DNA from: Escherichia virus TH38
Length of the DNA stretch: 64,000 bases
Strand: one strand, 5' to 3'
Sequence record: MT446410.1
The translations under genes were made by a program, and so were the position numbers. Each line of letters begins with the position of its first letter. Within the stretch, counting starts at the first letter, position 1. Below are positions 2,570 through 20,704 of the stretch, one piece after another. The notes beneath the pieces are model-generated. The model saw nothing but the letters and a program-made list of their open reading frames with translations. It ran no database searches and was not told the origin of the DNA.

Positions 2570-2737
2570 ATATGAGCTATGCGATAACTTTAACTGTGAA
2601 GCGATGAACCCATTACAGGCAAAGCCAATTACTCCTGACAGTGGTTTAGCCAGAAGCAGGGCTACCAAGACCAATGCAATAAGTAATATATCGTTTTGCT
2701 ATCGTGCATCGCTCGCGCTCAGTTCCATTGTGCTTTT

Positions 2738-4362: not shown

Positions 4363-4545
4363 CTAAAAGAGAGGGGTGCTATTCCATAATGATTTCCTAT
4401 CCCTTTCTCTACTTCTAGATTCTATCTCCTTCTTTAGCAAATCGTTTTCTTCTTGCAAGGATGCTACCAGATGAACCAGAACATCAACTACTGCATCACC
4501 TTGCCGCATCTCTCTGACTTTATTTAGAATCTCTGAATAAATCAT
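4363..4545 (-). CDS. Hypothetical protein (60 aa)
   Basis: ORF; ATGA start/stop overlap with the upstream gene. Confidence 0.4.
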   Translation of the reverse strand: MIYSEILNKVREMRQGDAVVDVLVHLVASLQEENDLLKKEIESRSRERDRKSLWNSTPLF

Positions 4546-14892: not shown

Positions 14893-17136
14893 ATGGCTAA
14901 GCAAAAATATAGTGAAGAGGTGTTGGACGAGTTACGTGTTGACCTTCAACGTCGTTTTAATTATGCTCAAGGCTACGTGGACATGGCTGTTAAGGGCTAT
15001 GCTCGTGAAGCTTGGGAATATTTCTATGGTAACTTACCTGCACCAGTAACTGCTGGCAGCTCTAGTTGGGTAGATCGTACTGTTTGGGAATCTGTTAACG
15101 GTACATTGCAAGATATTATTAACGTATTCTGTTCTGGTGATGAAGCAGTTACTTTCGTAGCTGACAACCAACAGGATTCTGATGCTGCTGATGTAGCAAC
15201 TAAATTAGTTAACCAAATTCTTCTGCGTGATAATCCGGGATACAATATTATCTCTTCTGCTGCACAAGAATGTCTGGTTACTCGTAACTCTTTTATCAAG
15301 TATTATTGGGATGAGCAAACTTCTACTCAAACTGAAGAGGCTGAAGGTGTACCACCGGAAGCATTGGCTGCATATGTTCAGGGATTAGAAGCTGGTGGAC
15401 TCAAGAATCTGGAAATCTTCACTGAAGAAAATGAAGATGGTACAGTAGATGTTAAAGTTACTTACGAACAAACTGTTAAACGTGTGAAAGTTGAATATGT
15501 TCCTTCAGAGCAAATCTTTGTTGATGAACATGCTACCTCTTTCGCAGATGCACAATATTTCTGTCATCGTGTACGTCGCTCTAAAGAAGATCTGGTTGCT
15601 ATGGGCTTCCCTAAAGATGAGATTGAAGCATTCAACGACTGGACAGACACGATGGATACCACTCAATCTACAGTTGCTTGGTCTCGTACTGACTGGCGTC
15701 AGGATATTGATGCTGATATTGGTACAGATACCGAAGATATCGCTTCTATGGTTTGGGTTTATGAGCACTATATTCGTACTGGTGTTCTAGATAAGAATAA
15801 AGAGTCTAAACTCTATCAGGTTATTCAAGCTGGTGAGCATATCCTTCACACTGAAGAAGTAACTCACATTCCGTTTGTAACCTTCTGTCCGTATCCGATT
15901 CCGGGTTCCTTCTATGGTCAATCGGTCTATGACATTACGAAAGATATTCAAGATTTACGTACCGCGTTAGTTCGTGGTTATATTGATAACGTCAACAATG
16001 CTAACTATGGTCGATACAAAGCTCTTGTTGGTGCATACGACCGTCGCTCTCTGCTTGATAACCGTCCCGGTGGAGTGGTTGAAATGGAACGTCAGGACGC
16101 TATTGACCTGTTCCCATACCATAACCTACCTCAAGGTATTGACGGCCTTCTAGGCATGTCTGAGGAGCTTAAAGAGACACGTACCGGTGTAACCAAACTA
16201 GGCATGGGTATCAACCCTGATGTGTTTAAGAATGATAACGCTTATGCAACCGTAGGCTTGATGATGAATGCTGCACAGAACCGCCTCCGTATGGTATGTC
16301 GTAACATTGCTCACAACGGTATGGTTGAACTGATGCGTGGTATTTACAATCTTATCAGAGAAAATGGTGAAGTTCCTATTGAGGTACAAACCCCTCGTGG
16401 TATGATTCAGGTAAATCCAAAACAATTACCAGCTCGTCACAACCTCCAAGTTGTTGTAGCTATCTCTCCTAATGAGAAAGCAGAACGTGCACAGAAACTG
16501 ATTAGCTTGAAACAGCTGATTGCAGCAGATGCACAGTTAGCACCCCTCTTTGGTTTGGAGCAAGACCGTTACATGACTGCACAGATCTTTGAGTTGATGG
16601 GTATTAAAGATACACATAAATACCTTCTGCCTCTGGAACAGTATCAGCCTCCAGAACCTTCTCCGATGGAAATCCTCCAGCTCGAGATGACTAAAGCTCA
16701 GGTTGAGAACGTACAGGCTTCTTCTCAGAAGATGATTGCTGATGCATTCGACCAACGTGAACGTACTACATTCGAACAGCAGAAAGCTGCGGATGAATTA
16801 AGTCTGCGTCAGGAAGAGTTGCAGTTCAAGCAAGAAAATGCAGCAGATGCAATGACTCTGGAAAACCGTAAAGAAGATAACAATGCTACTCTGGAACAAG
16901 CTAAGCACAAGTTAGCTCTTATGCAACAGCAGGTCCGTCAGTATGAATCTGTACTGAAAGAATTGCAGATGGTTATGTCTCATCAGGTAGACCAAGAGAA
17001 GATTGTTCAGCAAGCTCGTGTTCAGGACAAAACTTTGGAACTCCAAAAGAAAGAAGCTAATGTAACTAAGAAAGAGCAACAAGCTTCTCTCAAAGATTCA
17101 CGGATTCCAGGCAAACGTCTTGGAAGTAAAAAGTAA
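14893..17136 (+). CDS. Portal (head-tail connector) protein with C-terminal coiled coil
   Basis: 747 aa, directly after the large terminase. Confidence 0.7.
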   Translation: MAKQKYSEEVLDELRVDLQRRFNYAQGYVDMAVKGYAREAWEYFYGNLPAPVTAGSSSWVDRTVWESVNGTLQDIINVFCSGDEAVTFVADNQQDSDAADVATKLVNQILLRDNPGYNIISSAAQECLVTRNSFIKYYWDEQTSTQTEEAEGVPPEALAAYVQGLEAGGLKNLEIFTEENEDGTVDVKVTYEQTVKRVKVEYVPSEQIFVDEHATSFADAQYFCHRVRRSKEDLVAMGFPKDEIEAFNDWTDTMDTTQSTVAWSRTDWRQDIDADIGTDTEDIASMVWVYEHYIRTGVLDKNKESKLYQVIQAGEHILHTEEVTHIPFVTFCPYPIPGSFYGQSVYDITKDIQDLRTALVRGYIDNVNNANYGRYKALVGAYDRRSLLDNRPGGVVEMERQDAIDLFPYHNLPQGIDGLLGMSEELKETRTGVTKLGMGINPDVFKNDNAYATVGLMMNAAQNRLRMVCRNIAHNGMVELMRGIYNLIRENGEVPIEVQTPRGMIQVNPKQLPARHNLQVVVAISPNEKAERAQKLISLKQLIAADAQLAPLFGLEQDRYMTAQIFELMGIKDTHKYLLPLEQYQPPEPSPMEILQLEMTKAQVENVQASSQKMIADAFDQRERTTFEQQKAADELSLRQEELQFKQENAADAMTLENRKEDNNATLEQAKHKLALMQQQVRQYESVLKELQMVMSHQVDQEKIVQQARVQDKTLELQKKEANVTKKEQQASLKDSRIPGKRLGSKK

Positions 17137-17145
17137 GGACGTCGA

Positions 17146-17382
17146 ATGAACATTAGGCATCAATTCAATAAAGAGCACGCCGCCGCTTTGGCGGCTCTCA
17201 ATCTTAACGGCAGTCTTGACGCAGCATTAGAGGCATTGAAAGAAAGACTCATGACAGAGATAGTTCAAACCGAACCTCATGAGAATAAGAAACGCGAAGA
17301 TTGTTATCAAAAGTATAAAATGGTGGGTAGCTTAAAAGAGGTCATAAAAGCTGCTATCAATAGTGCAGGAGATGTTTCATAA
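17146..17382 (+). CDS. Hypothetical protein (78 aa)
   Basis: ORF. Confidence 0.4.
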   Translation: MNIRHQFNKEHAAALAALNLNGSLDAALEALKERLMTEIVQTEPHENKKREDCYQKYKMVGSLKEVIKAAINSAGDVS

Positions 17383-18467
17383 TGCCACAAGATAATTATA
17401 TTGACCCGAACGATTTTAAATCTTTCCTCCAACTGGATGACCTGAAAGGTTCTTTCAAAGAAGAACTCGGTCGATTAGAATCTGAACAAGAACCAGAAGT
17501 GGACATTGACGATGAGTTCCCGGAAAAAGACGGTGACGATTTCGACTTTGATACCGACCTTCTCGGTGAAAGCGATGAGCTTAAGTTCGAAGATGAAGAT
17601 GGTTGGGAAGATCATGAAGAGGAAGGCGAAGTCGAAGAAGATGAGGAAGAATTTGATGAATCAGACGAAAGCTCTGAAGCAGATGAGGACGACTCAAGCG
17701 ATGCAGGATATGAAGATGATTCTGCTGACGGTGAAGGTGAAGTCTTTGATGTAGACTACGAAACCGTTATCACCCTTCCTGATGGACGTGAGATGACTAT
17801 TGAAGAACTTTCTAATGGCTATCTTACTGGTGCTGATATGACAGAACGAGAATCAACTCTTCAGCGTCATATGGAAGCATTCGAGGAACGTGTAGTAGGT
17901 TTGAAGGATGTATTAGAACTAGCGTCTTTAGAAGCAGACCGAGTAATTGAAGATTATAACGGTTTTGATTGGGACAAGCTTGCAGTAGAAGATCCTCAAG
18001 CGTATGTTGAAAACAAACGTTTCCTAGAGAAGTACACAGCTCGCCGTCAACAGCTTGAACAGGCTCAGATGCGTGTTAAGCAGGAAGCAGCAGCTAAAGA
18101 GCAGGAAGCTTTCCAAGCCAAGAGCATTGAATGTGTTAATATTCTGAAACGTGAGATTCCAAATTGGGATGAAAACTTATATCAAAACTTAATGCAATAC
18201 GCAATTGACTTAGGTGCTACTGAAGAAGAAGTATTGAAGGAAAACCGTCCGTCTATTTTCCTAGCTCTCCATAAAGCATACCAATTTGATAAAGGTAAGC
18301 AACAGGTGATGGCTAAGATTAAACGTCCCGGTGCTCCACGCAAGGTTGTGAAGTCTGATGCTGCAAAGTCTCGCACTTCCAATAAGCCCGACAACGCTAA
18401 GGTTGCCAAGGCATTCGCAGAGGGTCGCGTTAGTCACGAAGATGCATTCAAATTCCTCGTAGATTAA
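17382..18467 (+). CDS. Scaffolding protein
   Basis: 361 aa, very acidic N-terminal half, coiled-coil-like, between portal and capsid. Confidence 0.6.
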   Translation: MPQDNYIDPNDFKSFLQLDDLKGSFKEELGRLESEQEPEVDIDDEFPEKDGDDFDFDTDLLGESDELKFEDEDGWEDHEEEGEVEEDEEEFDESDESSEADEDDSSDAGYEDDSADGEGEVFDVDYETVITLPDGREMTIEELSNGYLTGADMTERESTLQRHMEAFEERVVGLKDVLELASLEADRVIEDYNGFDWDKLAVEDPQAYVENKRFLEKYTARRQQLEQAQMRVKQEAAAKEQEAFQAKSIECVNILKREIPNWDENLYQNLMQYAIDLGATEEEVLKENRPSIFLALHKAYQFDKGKQQVMAKIKRPGAPRKVVKSDAAKSRTSNKPDNAKVAKAFAEGRVSHEDAFKFLVD

Positions 18468-18507: not shown

Positions 18508-19566
18508 ATGGCTAATCCAACTTTATTTGTATCGTATGACCAGAATGGTAAAAAACTTTCTTTTGCTAACTGGATTTCTGTTCTGTCCCCTCAGGATACC
18601 CCGTTCGTATCTATGACCGGTAAAGAGTCTATCAACCAGACTATCTTTAGCTGGCAGACCGATGCACTGGCAAGCGTTGACGGTAATAACGCACACGTCG
18701 AAGGCTCTCGTGCTGAAGACGGCGAAATGAAACCGACTGTTATCAAATCTAACGTTACTCAGATTCTGCGTAAGGTTGTTCGTGTTTCTGATACTGCTAA
18801 CACCACCGCTAACTACGGGCGTGGTCGTGAACTGATGTATCAGCTGGAGAAGAAAGGTAAAGAGATCAAGCGTGACCTCGAGAAAATCCTTCTGTCCGGT
18901 CAGGCTCGTACCGATGTTCTGGCTGACCAGTATCTGACTAACTCGGCAACTGATCCTGCTGTTGTTGGTCTGAATGACACCCATGCAGCTCGTAAGACTG
19001 GTGCATTCCAGTTCCTGTGTGCTCACGGTGGTCTGGCTGGTGGCGTTGTTGACAAGACCAAGAATGGTCCTGCTGACCCGGATACTGGTGCAGTAACTGT
19101 TAAAGTTGCACAGAATGCTTCTAACCCGACCACTAACATTGGTTTCGACGAAGCTGATATCTTTGATATGACTCTGCAACTGTATACCGCTGGTTCTGAA
19201 GCAGATATCATCATGATTAACCCGGCTCATGCTAAGATCTTCGCTGGTCTGCAAGAAAATACTCAGGGTTCACGTAAGCGTATCTTTGAGAACACCAAGC
19301 AGTTCATCTACGAAGTTAACAGCATCACTGACCCGCTGGGCCAGAGCTACAAAATCATCGTTAACCGTTGGATGCCTACTGATGCAGTTTACTTCTTCCG
19401 TAGCGCTGACTGGACTCAGATGGTTCTGCGTGCTCCGAAACGTACTGAACTGGCTAAAGACGGTTCTTACGAGAAGTGGATGATTGAAATGGAAGTTGGT
19501 CTGCGTCACCGCAACCCGTATGCTTCCGGAGTTCTGTTCACTGCTGCGGGAAAGGTGGTGGCGTAA
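18508..19566 (+). CDS. Major capsid protein
   Basis: 352 aa ORF with strong RBS, position after the scaffold. Confidence 0.7.
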   Translation: MANPTLFVSYDQNGKKLSFANWISVLSPQDTPFVSMTGKESINQTIFSWQTDALASVDGNNAHVEGSRAEDGEMKPTVIKSNVTQILRKVVRVSDTANTTANYGRGRELMYQLEKKGKEIKRDLEKILLSGQARTDVLADQYLTNSATDPAVVGLNDTHAARKTGAFQFLCAHGGLAGGVVDKTKNGPADPDTGAVTVKVAQNASNPTTNIGFDEADIFDMTLQLYTAGSEADIIMINPAHAKIFAGLQENTQGSRKRIFENTKQFIYEVNSITDPLGQSYKIIVNRWMPTDAVYFFRSADWTQMVLRAPKRTELAKDGSYEKWMIEMEVGLRHRNPYASGVLFTAAGKVVA

Positions 19567-20090
19567 CAGTAGACAGTGTGACTGTTAGCCCTGCGTCTTT
19601 AGCAAGCCTAGAGACAGGGGCTACTCGGCAGTTCACTGCAAGCGCGGAGAAAAGTGATGGTTCTACCGAAACAACTGGCTTTACTTGGTCAGTGACAGGA
19701 GGTGGTTCTATCACTCAGTCGGGTTTGTATACTGCTCCGAGTGCGTCTCAATCCACTGATGTATCCATTACTGCAACTTTAGAAGGTGTTTCTGGTACAG
19801 CAACAATTTCAGAAATTGTTGCTCCTGCTCCTACTATTGTAGCTAAGGGTCCTATTACGGGTAAAACTGGTGGTTCCTCCACTAATTTCACTACCATGTT
19901 TACTGTAACTAACTCTGCTGCTGCGGATTACACGTTTGTTGTAACTCCTAAAGAAGCCGGTACAGTAAGCGCCGCTGGTGCGTTAACCTTAGATGCTGCT
20001 GCAAGTGGCGAAGTTACTGTTCAAGCAAGTTTGACAGCTGACCCGTCCATCAATGCAACATGCACTTTTACTGGTGTAACACCTGCTTAA
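19548..20090 (+). CDS. Capsid C-terminal Ig-like (Big_2-type) extension reached by programmed -1 frameshift at G_GGA_AAG
   Basis: Slippery heptamer gggaaag at 19548-19554, 10 nt before the capsid stop; -1 frame open to 20090; no RBS for an independent start. Confidence 0.6.
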   Translation, partial: GKGGGVTVDSVTVSPASLASLETGATRQFTASAEKSDGSTETTGFTWSVTGGGSITQSGLYTAPSASQSTDVSITATLEGVSGTATISEIVAPAPTIVAKGPITGKTGGSSTNFTTMFTVTNSAAADYTFVVTPKEAGTVSAAGALTLDAAASGEVTVQASLTADPSINATCTFTGVTPA

Positions 20091-20095
20091 AACTA

Positions 20096-20122
20096 GACCC
20101 TGCCTTCGGGCGGGGTTTTTTC
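20096..20122 (+). terminator. Rho-independent terminator
   Basis: ccctgccttcgggcgggg followed by tttttt. Confidence 0.7.
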
Positions 20123-20149
20123 GTTTTAAGACCTATACAAGCCAGTGTG

Positions 20150-20191: not shown

Positions 20192-20704
20192 ATGGCAATG
20201 CCAGATTTCAGAGGAGCTTTTACATATAACCCAAATACAGGGCATCTTTTCTGGTCTATGAGTAATATATTCAATAAACAGAAAGGGCAACGTGCTGGAT
20301 GTATTAATAATAAGGGATATCGTGTACTAACCTTCAAGAAGAAATCATACCTAGAGCACAGGGTCATAGCTGAACTCTTTCTTCCTAAAGTAGAAGGGAA
20401 GGACTATGTCAACCATAAGAATGGAATAAAAGATGACAACAGGATTGAGAATCTAGAGTGGTGTACTCAACAAGAAAACTGTGTACATGCTTATGAAACA
20501 AAACTCTCAACACCAAGGAATCTTGAGGATAACCCTAATTCCAAGCTTACTAAAGAACAAGTTCTTTTCTGTTTAGAGAACTATAAACCGAGGGACAGAC
20601 AGTTCGGAGCTAGAGCTTTAGCTAGGAAGTTTGGAGTCTCTTCAAGTACAATAAGCCTGATAATCAATGGCACAAACTGGAAGGAGGTATCCTATGTTGC
20701 CTGA
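20192..20704 (+). CDS. HNH homing endonuclease (free-standing)
   Basis: KNGIKDDNRIENLEW HNH-type motif. Confidence 0.65.
   Translation: MAMPDFRGAFTYNPNTGHLFWSMSNIFNKQKGQRAGCINNKGYRVLTFKKKSYLEHRVIAELFLPKVEGKDYVNHKNGIKDDNRIENLEWCTQQENCVHAYETKLSTPRNLEDNPNSKLTKEQVLFCLENYKPRDRQFGARALARKFGVSSSTISLIINGTNWKEVSYVA

Follow-up and report, generated by a model that had tools for sequence, protein, structure and literature searches.

A probable programmed -1 ribosomal frameshift in the major capsid gene of phiEco32-like podophages

We analysed a stretch of 64,000 nucleotides (nt) from Escherichia virus TH38 (MT446410.1; hereafter, the window) and focused on the 3' end of its major capsid protein gene, where an original prediction, made from the letters alone, had placed a frameshift that extends the capsid protein with an immunoglobulin-like (Ig-like) domain. 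We conclude, with a probability of about 0.9, that the feature is a -1 programmed ribosomal frameshift of the major capsid gene as found in phiEco32-like (Kuravirus) podophages. According to this model, most ribosomes would read GCG GGA AAG GTG GTG GCG TAA and release a capsid protein of 352 amino acids (aa), and a minority would slip one base back, with tRNA-Gly on GGA and tRNA-Lys on AAG re-pairing with GGG and AAA. The slipped ribosomes would resume at GGT GGT GGC, which encodes a Gly-Gly-Gly linker, and add 178 residues predicted to form two Big_2-type domains, yielding a minor capsid species of 527 aa and 55.6 kDa. Because the long form would share the complete capsid fold, it could co-assemble into the prolate shell with its Ig domains displayed outside, where they are thought to give weak adhesion to surfaces or carbohydrates. 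For this phage we infer the slip itself, an efficiency of a few percent, the incorporation of the long form into virions and the function of the Ig domains. Both the site and the fusion have already been published for phiEco32, SU10, Privateer and YF01, and are ordinary for this phage group.

A slippery heptamer at the end of the capsid gene opens a long -1 frame

The capsid gene is an open reading frame (ORF) at 18508..19566 on the plus strand that encodes a 38.7-kDa protein of the HK97-fold family SU10_MCP. Residues 12-344 match Pfam PF17236 (SU10_MCP) with an E value of 9e-77 and 258.8 bits, well above the curated cut-off of 24.1, and the gene follows a portal gene (14893..17136) and a scaffold gene (17382..18467), the position in which a capsid gene of this family is found. 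Its last codons read ...GCT GCG GGA AAG GTG GTG GCG TAA, which places GGGAAAG at 19548..19554 (+) in the capsid-frame register G_GGA_AAG. This is a slippery heptamer of the X_XXY_YYZ type, in the register that had been predicted, and is the proposed site of a -1 tandem tRNA slip. The capsid stop codon TAA occupies 19564..19566, leaving a gap of 9 nt after the heptamer; the original figure of 10 nt differs by counting convention. Both the 0 frame and the -1 frame are open over 79 nt (19488..19566, +), and any -1 shift inside this overlap would give a fusion. A heptamer scan found GGGAAAG to be the sole canonical slip site within the overlap, and it is also the only in-register X_XXY_YYZ heptamer of the entire capsid ORF. 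The -1 frame is open from 19488 to a TAA at 20088..20090 and contains 178 sense codons after the slip, a count that agrees with the 181 codons given earlier, which are the triplets from 19548 including the stop. The predicted slip junction is ...TAAGK|GGGVTVDSVTV..., with the junction peptide AAGKGGGVTVDSVTVSPASLASLETGATR; after TAAGK the product reads GGGVTVDSVTVSPAS..., and the junction AAGK-GGGVTVDSVTV of the original prediction is correct from translation. The predicted trans-frame product has 527 aa and 55.6 kDa, and the short form has 352 aa and 38.7 kDa.

The bare GGGAAAG 7-mer is not enriched in the window, where 8 copies occur and 7.5 are expected. The window contains 67 ORFs that encode 100 aa or more, and the capsid ORF is the only one of them in which an in-register heptamer within the last 30 codons leads into a long -1 frame; the other ORFs with a heptamer in their last 30 codons open -1 frames of 4 to 38 codons. 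Given the stop-triplet frequency of the window, a run of 178 open codons would arise by chance with a probability of about 3e-5. When the 17-mer around the heptamer was searched in IMG/VR, it was found in five known Kuravirus contigs and in seven unrelated viral contigs. The unrelated contigs served as negative controls and had either no extension or a 46-codon low-complexity -1 reading, with no evident coding character. We conclude that the conjunction of heptamer, register and long -1 frame is far from chance, and that the 7-mer alone is unremarkable.

The same protein could also be made, as far as the sequence level can tell, if RNA polymerase slipped on GGGAAA or if some other recoding event took place in the overlap, which spans 79 nt. 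We give this explanation scarcely any chance of being correct. Three G followed by three A fall well short of the homopolymer tracts generally known to support transcriptional slippage, and the only conserved shift-prone motif in the overlap is the in-register heptamer. Further, relatives without GGGAAAG have tRNA-Lys A_AAG-type sites at this place (G_GTA_AAG and A_AAA_AAG, see below), which also argues against slippage of the polymerase.

The heptamer and the -1 frame are conserved among relatives

The heptamer is in register at all 13 Gordonclarkvirinae loci that were compared, as well as in Proteus phage J3S, where GGGAAAG abuts the stop codon (G_GGA_AAG_TAA). Heptamer and open frame are both kept in 12 of the 13 Gordonclarkvirinae sequences. 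The in-register heptamer is followed by an extension of 178-372 codons in ShigP1, phiEco32, four IMG/VR Kuravirus genomes, SU7, 101114UKE3, EP335, MN05 and O18-011. Thus, both the site and its frame relationship are conserved in relatives, as is expected of a programmed -1 frameshift.

The length of the extension varies in a modular way. EP335 (L034 4253..5377) has the 372-codon extension, in which the second Ig-like module is repeated and a further C-terminal domain is present. Among the protein homologues P0003, P0008-P0014 and P0021, one metagenomic sequence has an extra Big_2 domain between the two domains, and others are longer by 60-100 residues at the C-terminus.

More distant relatives have other arrangements. 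In contigs of the Aeromonas phage type (L009-L012 and L018, for example LAh_9), GGGAAAG is absent and G_GTA_AAG is found at the same place and in the same register (about 4412..4418), just 5' of the capsid stop codon and followed by a -1 ORF of 90-171 codons that encodes Big_2 or Ig_3 domains. G_GTA_AAG is non-canonical and allows good re-pairing for the A-site lysine tRNA only. Locus L014 has A_AAA_AAG at about 4421 with an extension of only 42 codons, and L013 and L016 have no extension. Tandem capsid paralogues of the SU10 type are also present in distant relatives, with two copies in L013, L017 and L019 and four copies in L014.

The second capsid copy is an in-frame fusion of SU10_MCP and Big_2 in two of these distant relatives, namely Salmonella phage SeKF_80 (L017 2484..5270; 589 aa) and phage PKM.Lu.22.1 (L019 3501..6858; 778 aa). 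Neither has a slippery site, and a tblastn search of the loci found in-frame fusions in distant relatives only. These fusions show that the C-terminus of this capsid family is a functional attachment point for Ig domains. In SeKF_80 and PKM.Lu.22.1, gene duplication appears to have taken the place of frameshifting in the production of two capsid forms.

The extension is predicted to encode two Ig-like domains and is under purifying selection

The -1 frame extension spans 19554..20090 (+) and consists of 178 codons and TAA, encoding a GGG linker and then two predicted tandem Ig-like domains. Residues 6-83 of the extension match Big_2 (PF02368) with an E value of 1.5e-5 and 25.3 bits, above the gathering score of 22.8. 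A second Ig-like domain, at about residues 90-178, is without a Pfam match of its own and was called from the predicted fold alone. AlphaFold2, run with 22 aligned sequences (that of the window and 21 homologues), gave a model with a predicted local distance difference test score (pLDDT) of 96.7 and two tandem beta-sandwich domains; a single-sequence AlphaFold model was poor (pLDDT 55) and was set aside for the alignment-based model. A Foldseek search with this model returned the tandem Big_2 pair of LigA as the top match in the PDB (8gyr; E value 3e-11, template modelling score 0.58), and further matches included the Big_2 domains of the phi29 capsid (6qvk) and of the T5 tail tube protein pb6 (5ngj). 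With a profile score above the gathering threshold and an Ig-like beta-sandwich in the model, the Big_2-like assignment of the original prediction stands, and its count of a single domain gives way to two tandem domains. Taken together, we conclude that the extension, as modelled, is two Ig-like domains behind a Gly-Gly-Gly linker.

In comparisons with five diverged Kuravirus-type sequences, the ratio of nonsynonymous to synonymous substitution rates (dN/dS) was 0.12-0.37 for the extension read in its -1 frame and 0.03-0.10 for the capsid gene, which shows that the extension is under purifying selection in the -1 frame. Its other two reading frames are interrupted by stops, 9 in one and 15 in the other. 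Codon usage shifts abruptly at the slip site: CTG accounts for 19 of 23 Leu codons in the capsid gene and 0 of 7 in the extension, ACA for 0 of 29 and 10 of 35 Thr codons, respectively, and the G+C content of third codon positions is 0.46 in the capsid gene and 0.275 in the extension. The pattern is of the highly expressed type in the capsid gene and ordinary in the extension, and such a drop fits a segment that is translated by few ribosomes.

The extension has no conserved start of its own

Could the Ig ORF be an independent gene, with a product of its own that attaches non-covalently to the capsid as a decoration or minor capsid protein? GenBank records list a separate 170-aa 'Ig domain containing protein' that starts at a GTG equivalent to 19578..19580 (+), 8 codons into the extension (for example phiEco32 gp12), and nearly all records are annotated in this way. 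A homologue search with the extension found no in-frame capsid-Ig proteins in close relatives, where all homologues are called as separate ORFs of 110-305 aa. In addition, the paper on the SU10 structure by cryo-electron microscopy (cryo-EM) raises the possibility that gp10 is a minor capsid protein in its own right and was lost during purification (PMC9509320). The proposed start, however, is not conserved, and is GTA or ATA in three of the relatives (L005-L007). No Shine-Dalgarno (SD) sequence was found 4-12 nt 5' of any in-frame ATG, GTG or TTG of the extension in 13 relatives, which bears out the earlier statement that the -1 frame has no plausible ribosome binding site. Gene callers assign differing starts across relatives and many of these truncate the Big_2 domain; in many relatives the first available start itself lies within that domain. 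Moreover, the frame is open back through the heptamer in every lineage, in-frame capsid-Ig fusions are known in distant relatives, and mass spectrometry (MS) of SU10 reported a capsid form of 55.4 kDa (PMC4281155).

From the sequences, we conclude that GTG 19578 is probably not the real start of a separate gene, and that the extension is a coding -1 ORF that overlaps the capsid gene and lacks a translation start of its own. Because the heptamer is conserved, the extension is under purifying selection, the annotated start is not conserved, no SD sequence precedes an in-frame start and in-frame fusions exist in distant relatives, we favour a trans-frame fusion and consider a separate gene very unlikely.

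Extended capsid proteins have been reported in related phages

MS of SU10 found capsid forms of 38.5 and 55.4 kDa, and the authors named GGGAAAG as the signal, 'as in phiEco32' (Mirzaei 2014, PMC4281155). Privateer has the same signal, two capsid bands by sodium dodecyl sulfate-polyacrylamide gel electrophoresis (SDS-PAGE) and a minor form that was detected in virions by MS; the same paper notes that phiEco32 and SU10 had been seen to make the frameshifted product (PMC7881722). For neither SU10 nor Privateer do these texts mention a junction peptide. The YF01 paper describes short and extended isoforms across the Kuravirus-like group, with an extended isoform of about 500-550 aa, and up to 892-894 aa (Nicolas et al. 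2023, PMC9965538). GGGAAAG is named in all three papers (PMC4281155, PMC7881722, PMC9965538). More generally, phages often use programmed frameshifting to append Ig-like domains to their structural proteins (Fraser et al. 2006, cited in PMC9022992). The capsid-Ig fusion first read from the window is therefore supported by the proteomics literature on relatives (PMC4281155, PMC7881722, PMC9965538), in addition to the conserved heptamer, selection in the -1 frame and the in-frame fusions of distant relatives.

Missing density, a missing band and the lack of a clear stimulator weigh against the frameshift

Several observations weigh against the frameshift. The YF01 study saw no band for the extended isoform by SDS-PAGE (PMC9965538), and the cryo-EM map of the SU10 capsid has no density for an Ig-bearing protein (PMC9509320). 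At the RNA level, folds of 19555..19674 and 19530..19620 from the single sequence were no better than those of shuffled sequences (z -1.0 to -1.4), and neither single-sequence nor alignment folds gave a convincing stimulatory structure at canonical spacing 3' of the heptamer. An RNAalifold consensus of 7 sequences contains a long imperfect hairpin at 19574..19638 (+), for which we found 3 compensatory pairs and a covariation term of -1.42 from three lineages only. A GGAG at 19528..19531, upstream of the heptamer, was considered as an SD-like stimulator and rejected, being specific to the window and not conserved in relatives.

The SU10 density can be examined further in the deposited SU10 genome (NC_027395). 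At about 2680..2690 of this locus (L003), equivalent to about 19575..19582 of the window, SU10 has GACACTGTCTACTG in place of the GACAGTGT-GACTG found in all relatives. This 1-nt insertion lies about 25 nt 3' of the heptamer, is accompanied by neighbouring substitutions and closes the -1 frame after 11 codons. It moves the Ig ORF into the capsid 0 frame, behind the capsid stop codon, and the heptamer is retained. The deposited sequence is thus at odds with the 55.4-kDa form from SU10 MS, and the insertion reflects either an error in sequencing or a mutation that the stock acquired later. The YF01 authors ascribe the missing SU10 density to the stop in the SU10 -1 frame (PMC9965538). The -1 frame, closed in the deposited SU10, is intact in the window.

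The SU10 record also bears on an explanation in which the signal is real and the long form is a dispensable, essentially non-functional low-level by-product that is absent from virions or fitness-neutral and is being lost. The deposited SU10 has lost the -1 frame (see also PMC9965538), the SU10 map has no extra density and the phage is nevertheless viable (PMC9509320), and L013 and L016 are without any extension. A useless by-product is difficult to square with the dN/dS of 0.12-0.37 in the extension, or with the retention of heptamer and frame in 12 of 13 Gordonclarkvirinae. The module has also been elaborated with additional domains in EP335, and in YF01 and Paul (PMC9965538), and distant lineages reach the same capsid-Ig product by other means. 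We therefore regard loss of a non-functional by-product as having only a very small chance of being the right account, and prefer a maintained frameshift.

For the RNA elements, the usual spacing of a stimulator is 5-9 nt. The hairpin at 19574..19638 begins 19 nt past the heptamer and its role in frameshifting is doubtful; with this uncanonical distance and weak covariation, we do not claim it as part of the mechanism. The consensus fold also contains a small hairpin at 19541..19563 (+), which holds the heptamer in its loop (CUGCUGC...GGUGGCG). A stimulatory role of this hairpin is unlikely, because its 5' arm would be inside the ribosome during slippage. The SU10 authors describe the same stem-loop with the heptamer in the loop (PMC4281155).

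A low-efficiency shift at this site may not need any stimulator. A stimulator is dispensable in lambda G/GT, which uses the same heptamer without a strong downstream structure. Since the lambda heptamer works at a few percent, a shift of low efficiency without a stimulator is plausible here. We can also imagine that the hairpin at 19574..19638 is an unconventional, distantly spaced stimulator or attenuator that sets the ratio of capsid to capsid-Ig in Kuraviruses, and that it forms a natural series with the G_GTA_AAG sites, the A_AAA_AAG site and the duplication with in-frame fusion; we consider this unlikely. If it were true, the hairpin and the other routes taken by relatives could serve as a series in which to follow the evolution of surface-display stoichiometry.

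The frameshift resembles those of other phages to differing degrees

The closest known systems are phiEco32 gp11/gp12 and SU10 gp9/gp10, which have the same gene, heptamer, position and 178-codon -1 extension as the window. The 38.7 and 55.6 kDa predicted here match the 38.5 and 55.4 kDa reported for SU10. This genome differs in having an HNH endonuclease insert just 3' of the unit (see below) and, unlike the deposited SU10, an intact -1 frame; otherwise there is no substantive difference. Privateer has a capsid of the same family (about 57% identity for its sister phage J3S), GGGAAAG and a -1 Ig-like extension of I-set and Big_2 domains. In Privateer, however, the heptamer abuts the stop codon, and the Ig domains are of other Pfam types and cannot be aligned with the extension described here.

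The original prediction had drawn an analogy with T7 10A/10B. It holds for mechanism and outcome, since in T7 and T3 a -1 shift near the 3' end of the major capsid gene likewise yields a minor, longer form that co-assembles, and it does not extend to homology: the capsid sequence family of T7 differs and the resemblance is functional only. No T7-like phage was found among the best 40 of 308 records from a tblastn search with the capsid protein. The slip sites are G_GUU_UUC in T7 and C_CCA_AAG in T3, the T7 extension is about 53 aa long, and T7 needs distant 3' sequences. Slippage in gene 10 of T7 and T3 is about 10%, and the efficiency of lambda G/GT is about 3.5% (PMC9965538).

The heptamer of lambda G/GT, G_GGA_AAG, is identical to the site in the window. 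The lambda product, in contrast, is a tail assembly chaperone whose ratio controls tail assembly, and is no virion surface protein. In SPP1 gp17.1*, as in the fusion predicted here, an Ig-like domain is placed at the C-terminus of a structural protein and kept substoichiometric through recoding (PMC9022992), although SPP1 uses a +1 shift and the protein is that of the tail tube. In phi29 gp8 and T5 pb6, by comparison, the domain is in frame on every subunit.

Genome neighbourhood of the capsid gene

The capsid protein is 99.7% identical to those of phiEco32 and ShigP1 and 100% identical to that of phage DE5. Over 1.8 kb around the site, DNA identity is 99.0% to EK5, 98.3% to phiEco32 and 98.1% to SU10, and dozens of Escherichia phages from the genus Kuravirus (Gordonclarkvirinae) share 98-99% identity with this region. 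The gene order also matches that of phiEco32 and SU10, with portal, small ORF, acidic scaffold, capsid and SU10-type adaptor. Judged by its sequence, the window is DNA of a phiEco32-like (Kuravirus) podophage of E. coli.

An intrinsic terminator at 20095..20128 (+), with a 10-bp stem, 6 GC pairs and a T-tract, lies directly 3' of the stop codon of the -1 ORF. It is the sole strong intrinsic terminator found, and it follows the -1 ORF rather than the capsid stop codon; the SU10 record lists a terminator at the homologous site. The capsid transcription unit is thus closed beyond the -1 ORF.

Downstream, an HNH_3 endonuclease ORF of 170 aa (20192..20704, +; Pfam E value 4e-13), with a C-terminal tail that resembles a helix-turn-helix, follows the capsid-Ig unit and precedes the adaptor gene, whose 5' end it overlaps. 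PhiEco32, SU10 and most relatives have only a spacer of about 100 nt in its place. The insert is present in 10 of 85 matching records, the best of which is phage TH06 (99.9%), and it looks like a mobile homing-endonuclease insertion. An antisense ORF of 243 aa (18523..19254, -) lies wholly within the capsid gene and is almost certainly a by-product of the strong capsid codon bias and not a gene.

Implications for Kuravirus capsids

The frameshift has a direct consequence for annotation. Gene callers and almost all GenBank records split the unit into a 'major head protein' and an 'Ig domain containing protein' for which a GTG or ATG is chosen arbitrarily as the start, and the correct description would be a single gene that yields two products, 352 and 527 aa long. 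Beyond what was published for the group, our addition is modest and consists of the comparative series of slip sites and the in-frame fusion after capsid duplication. For the phage itself, a coliphage of the therapeutic type, the long form is a candidate module for surface adhesion, and would be a natural site for display on the capsid.

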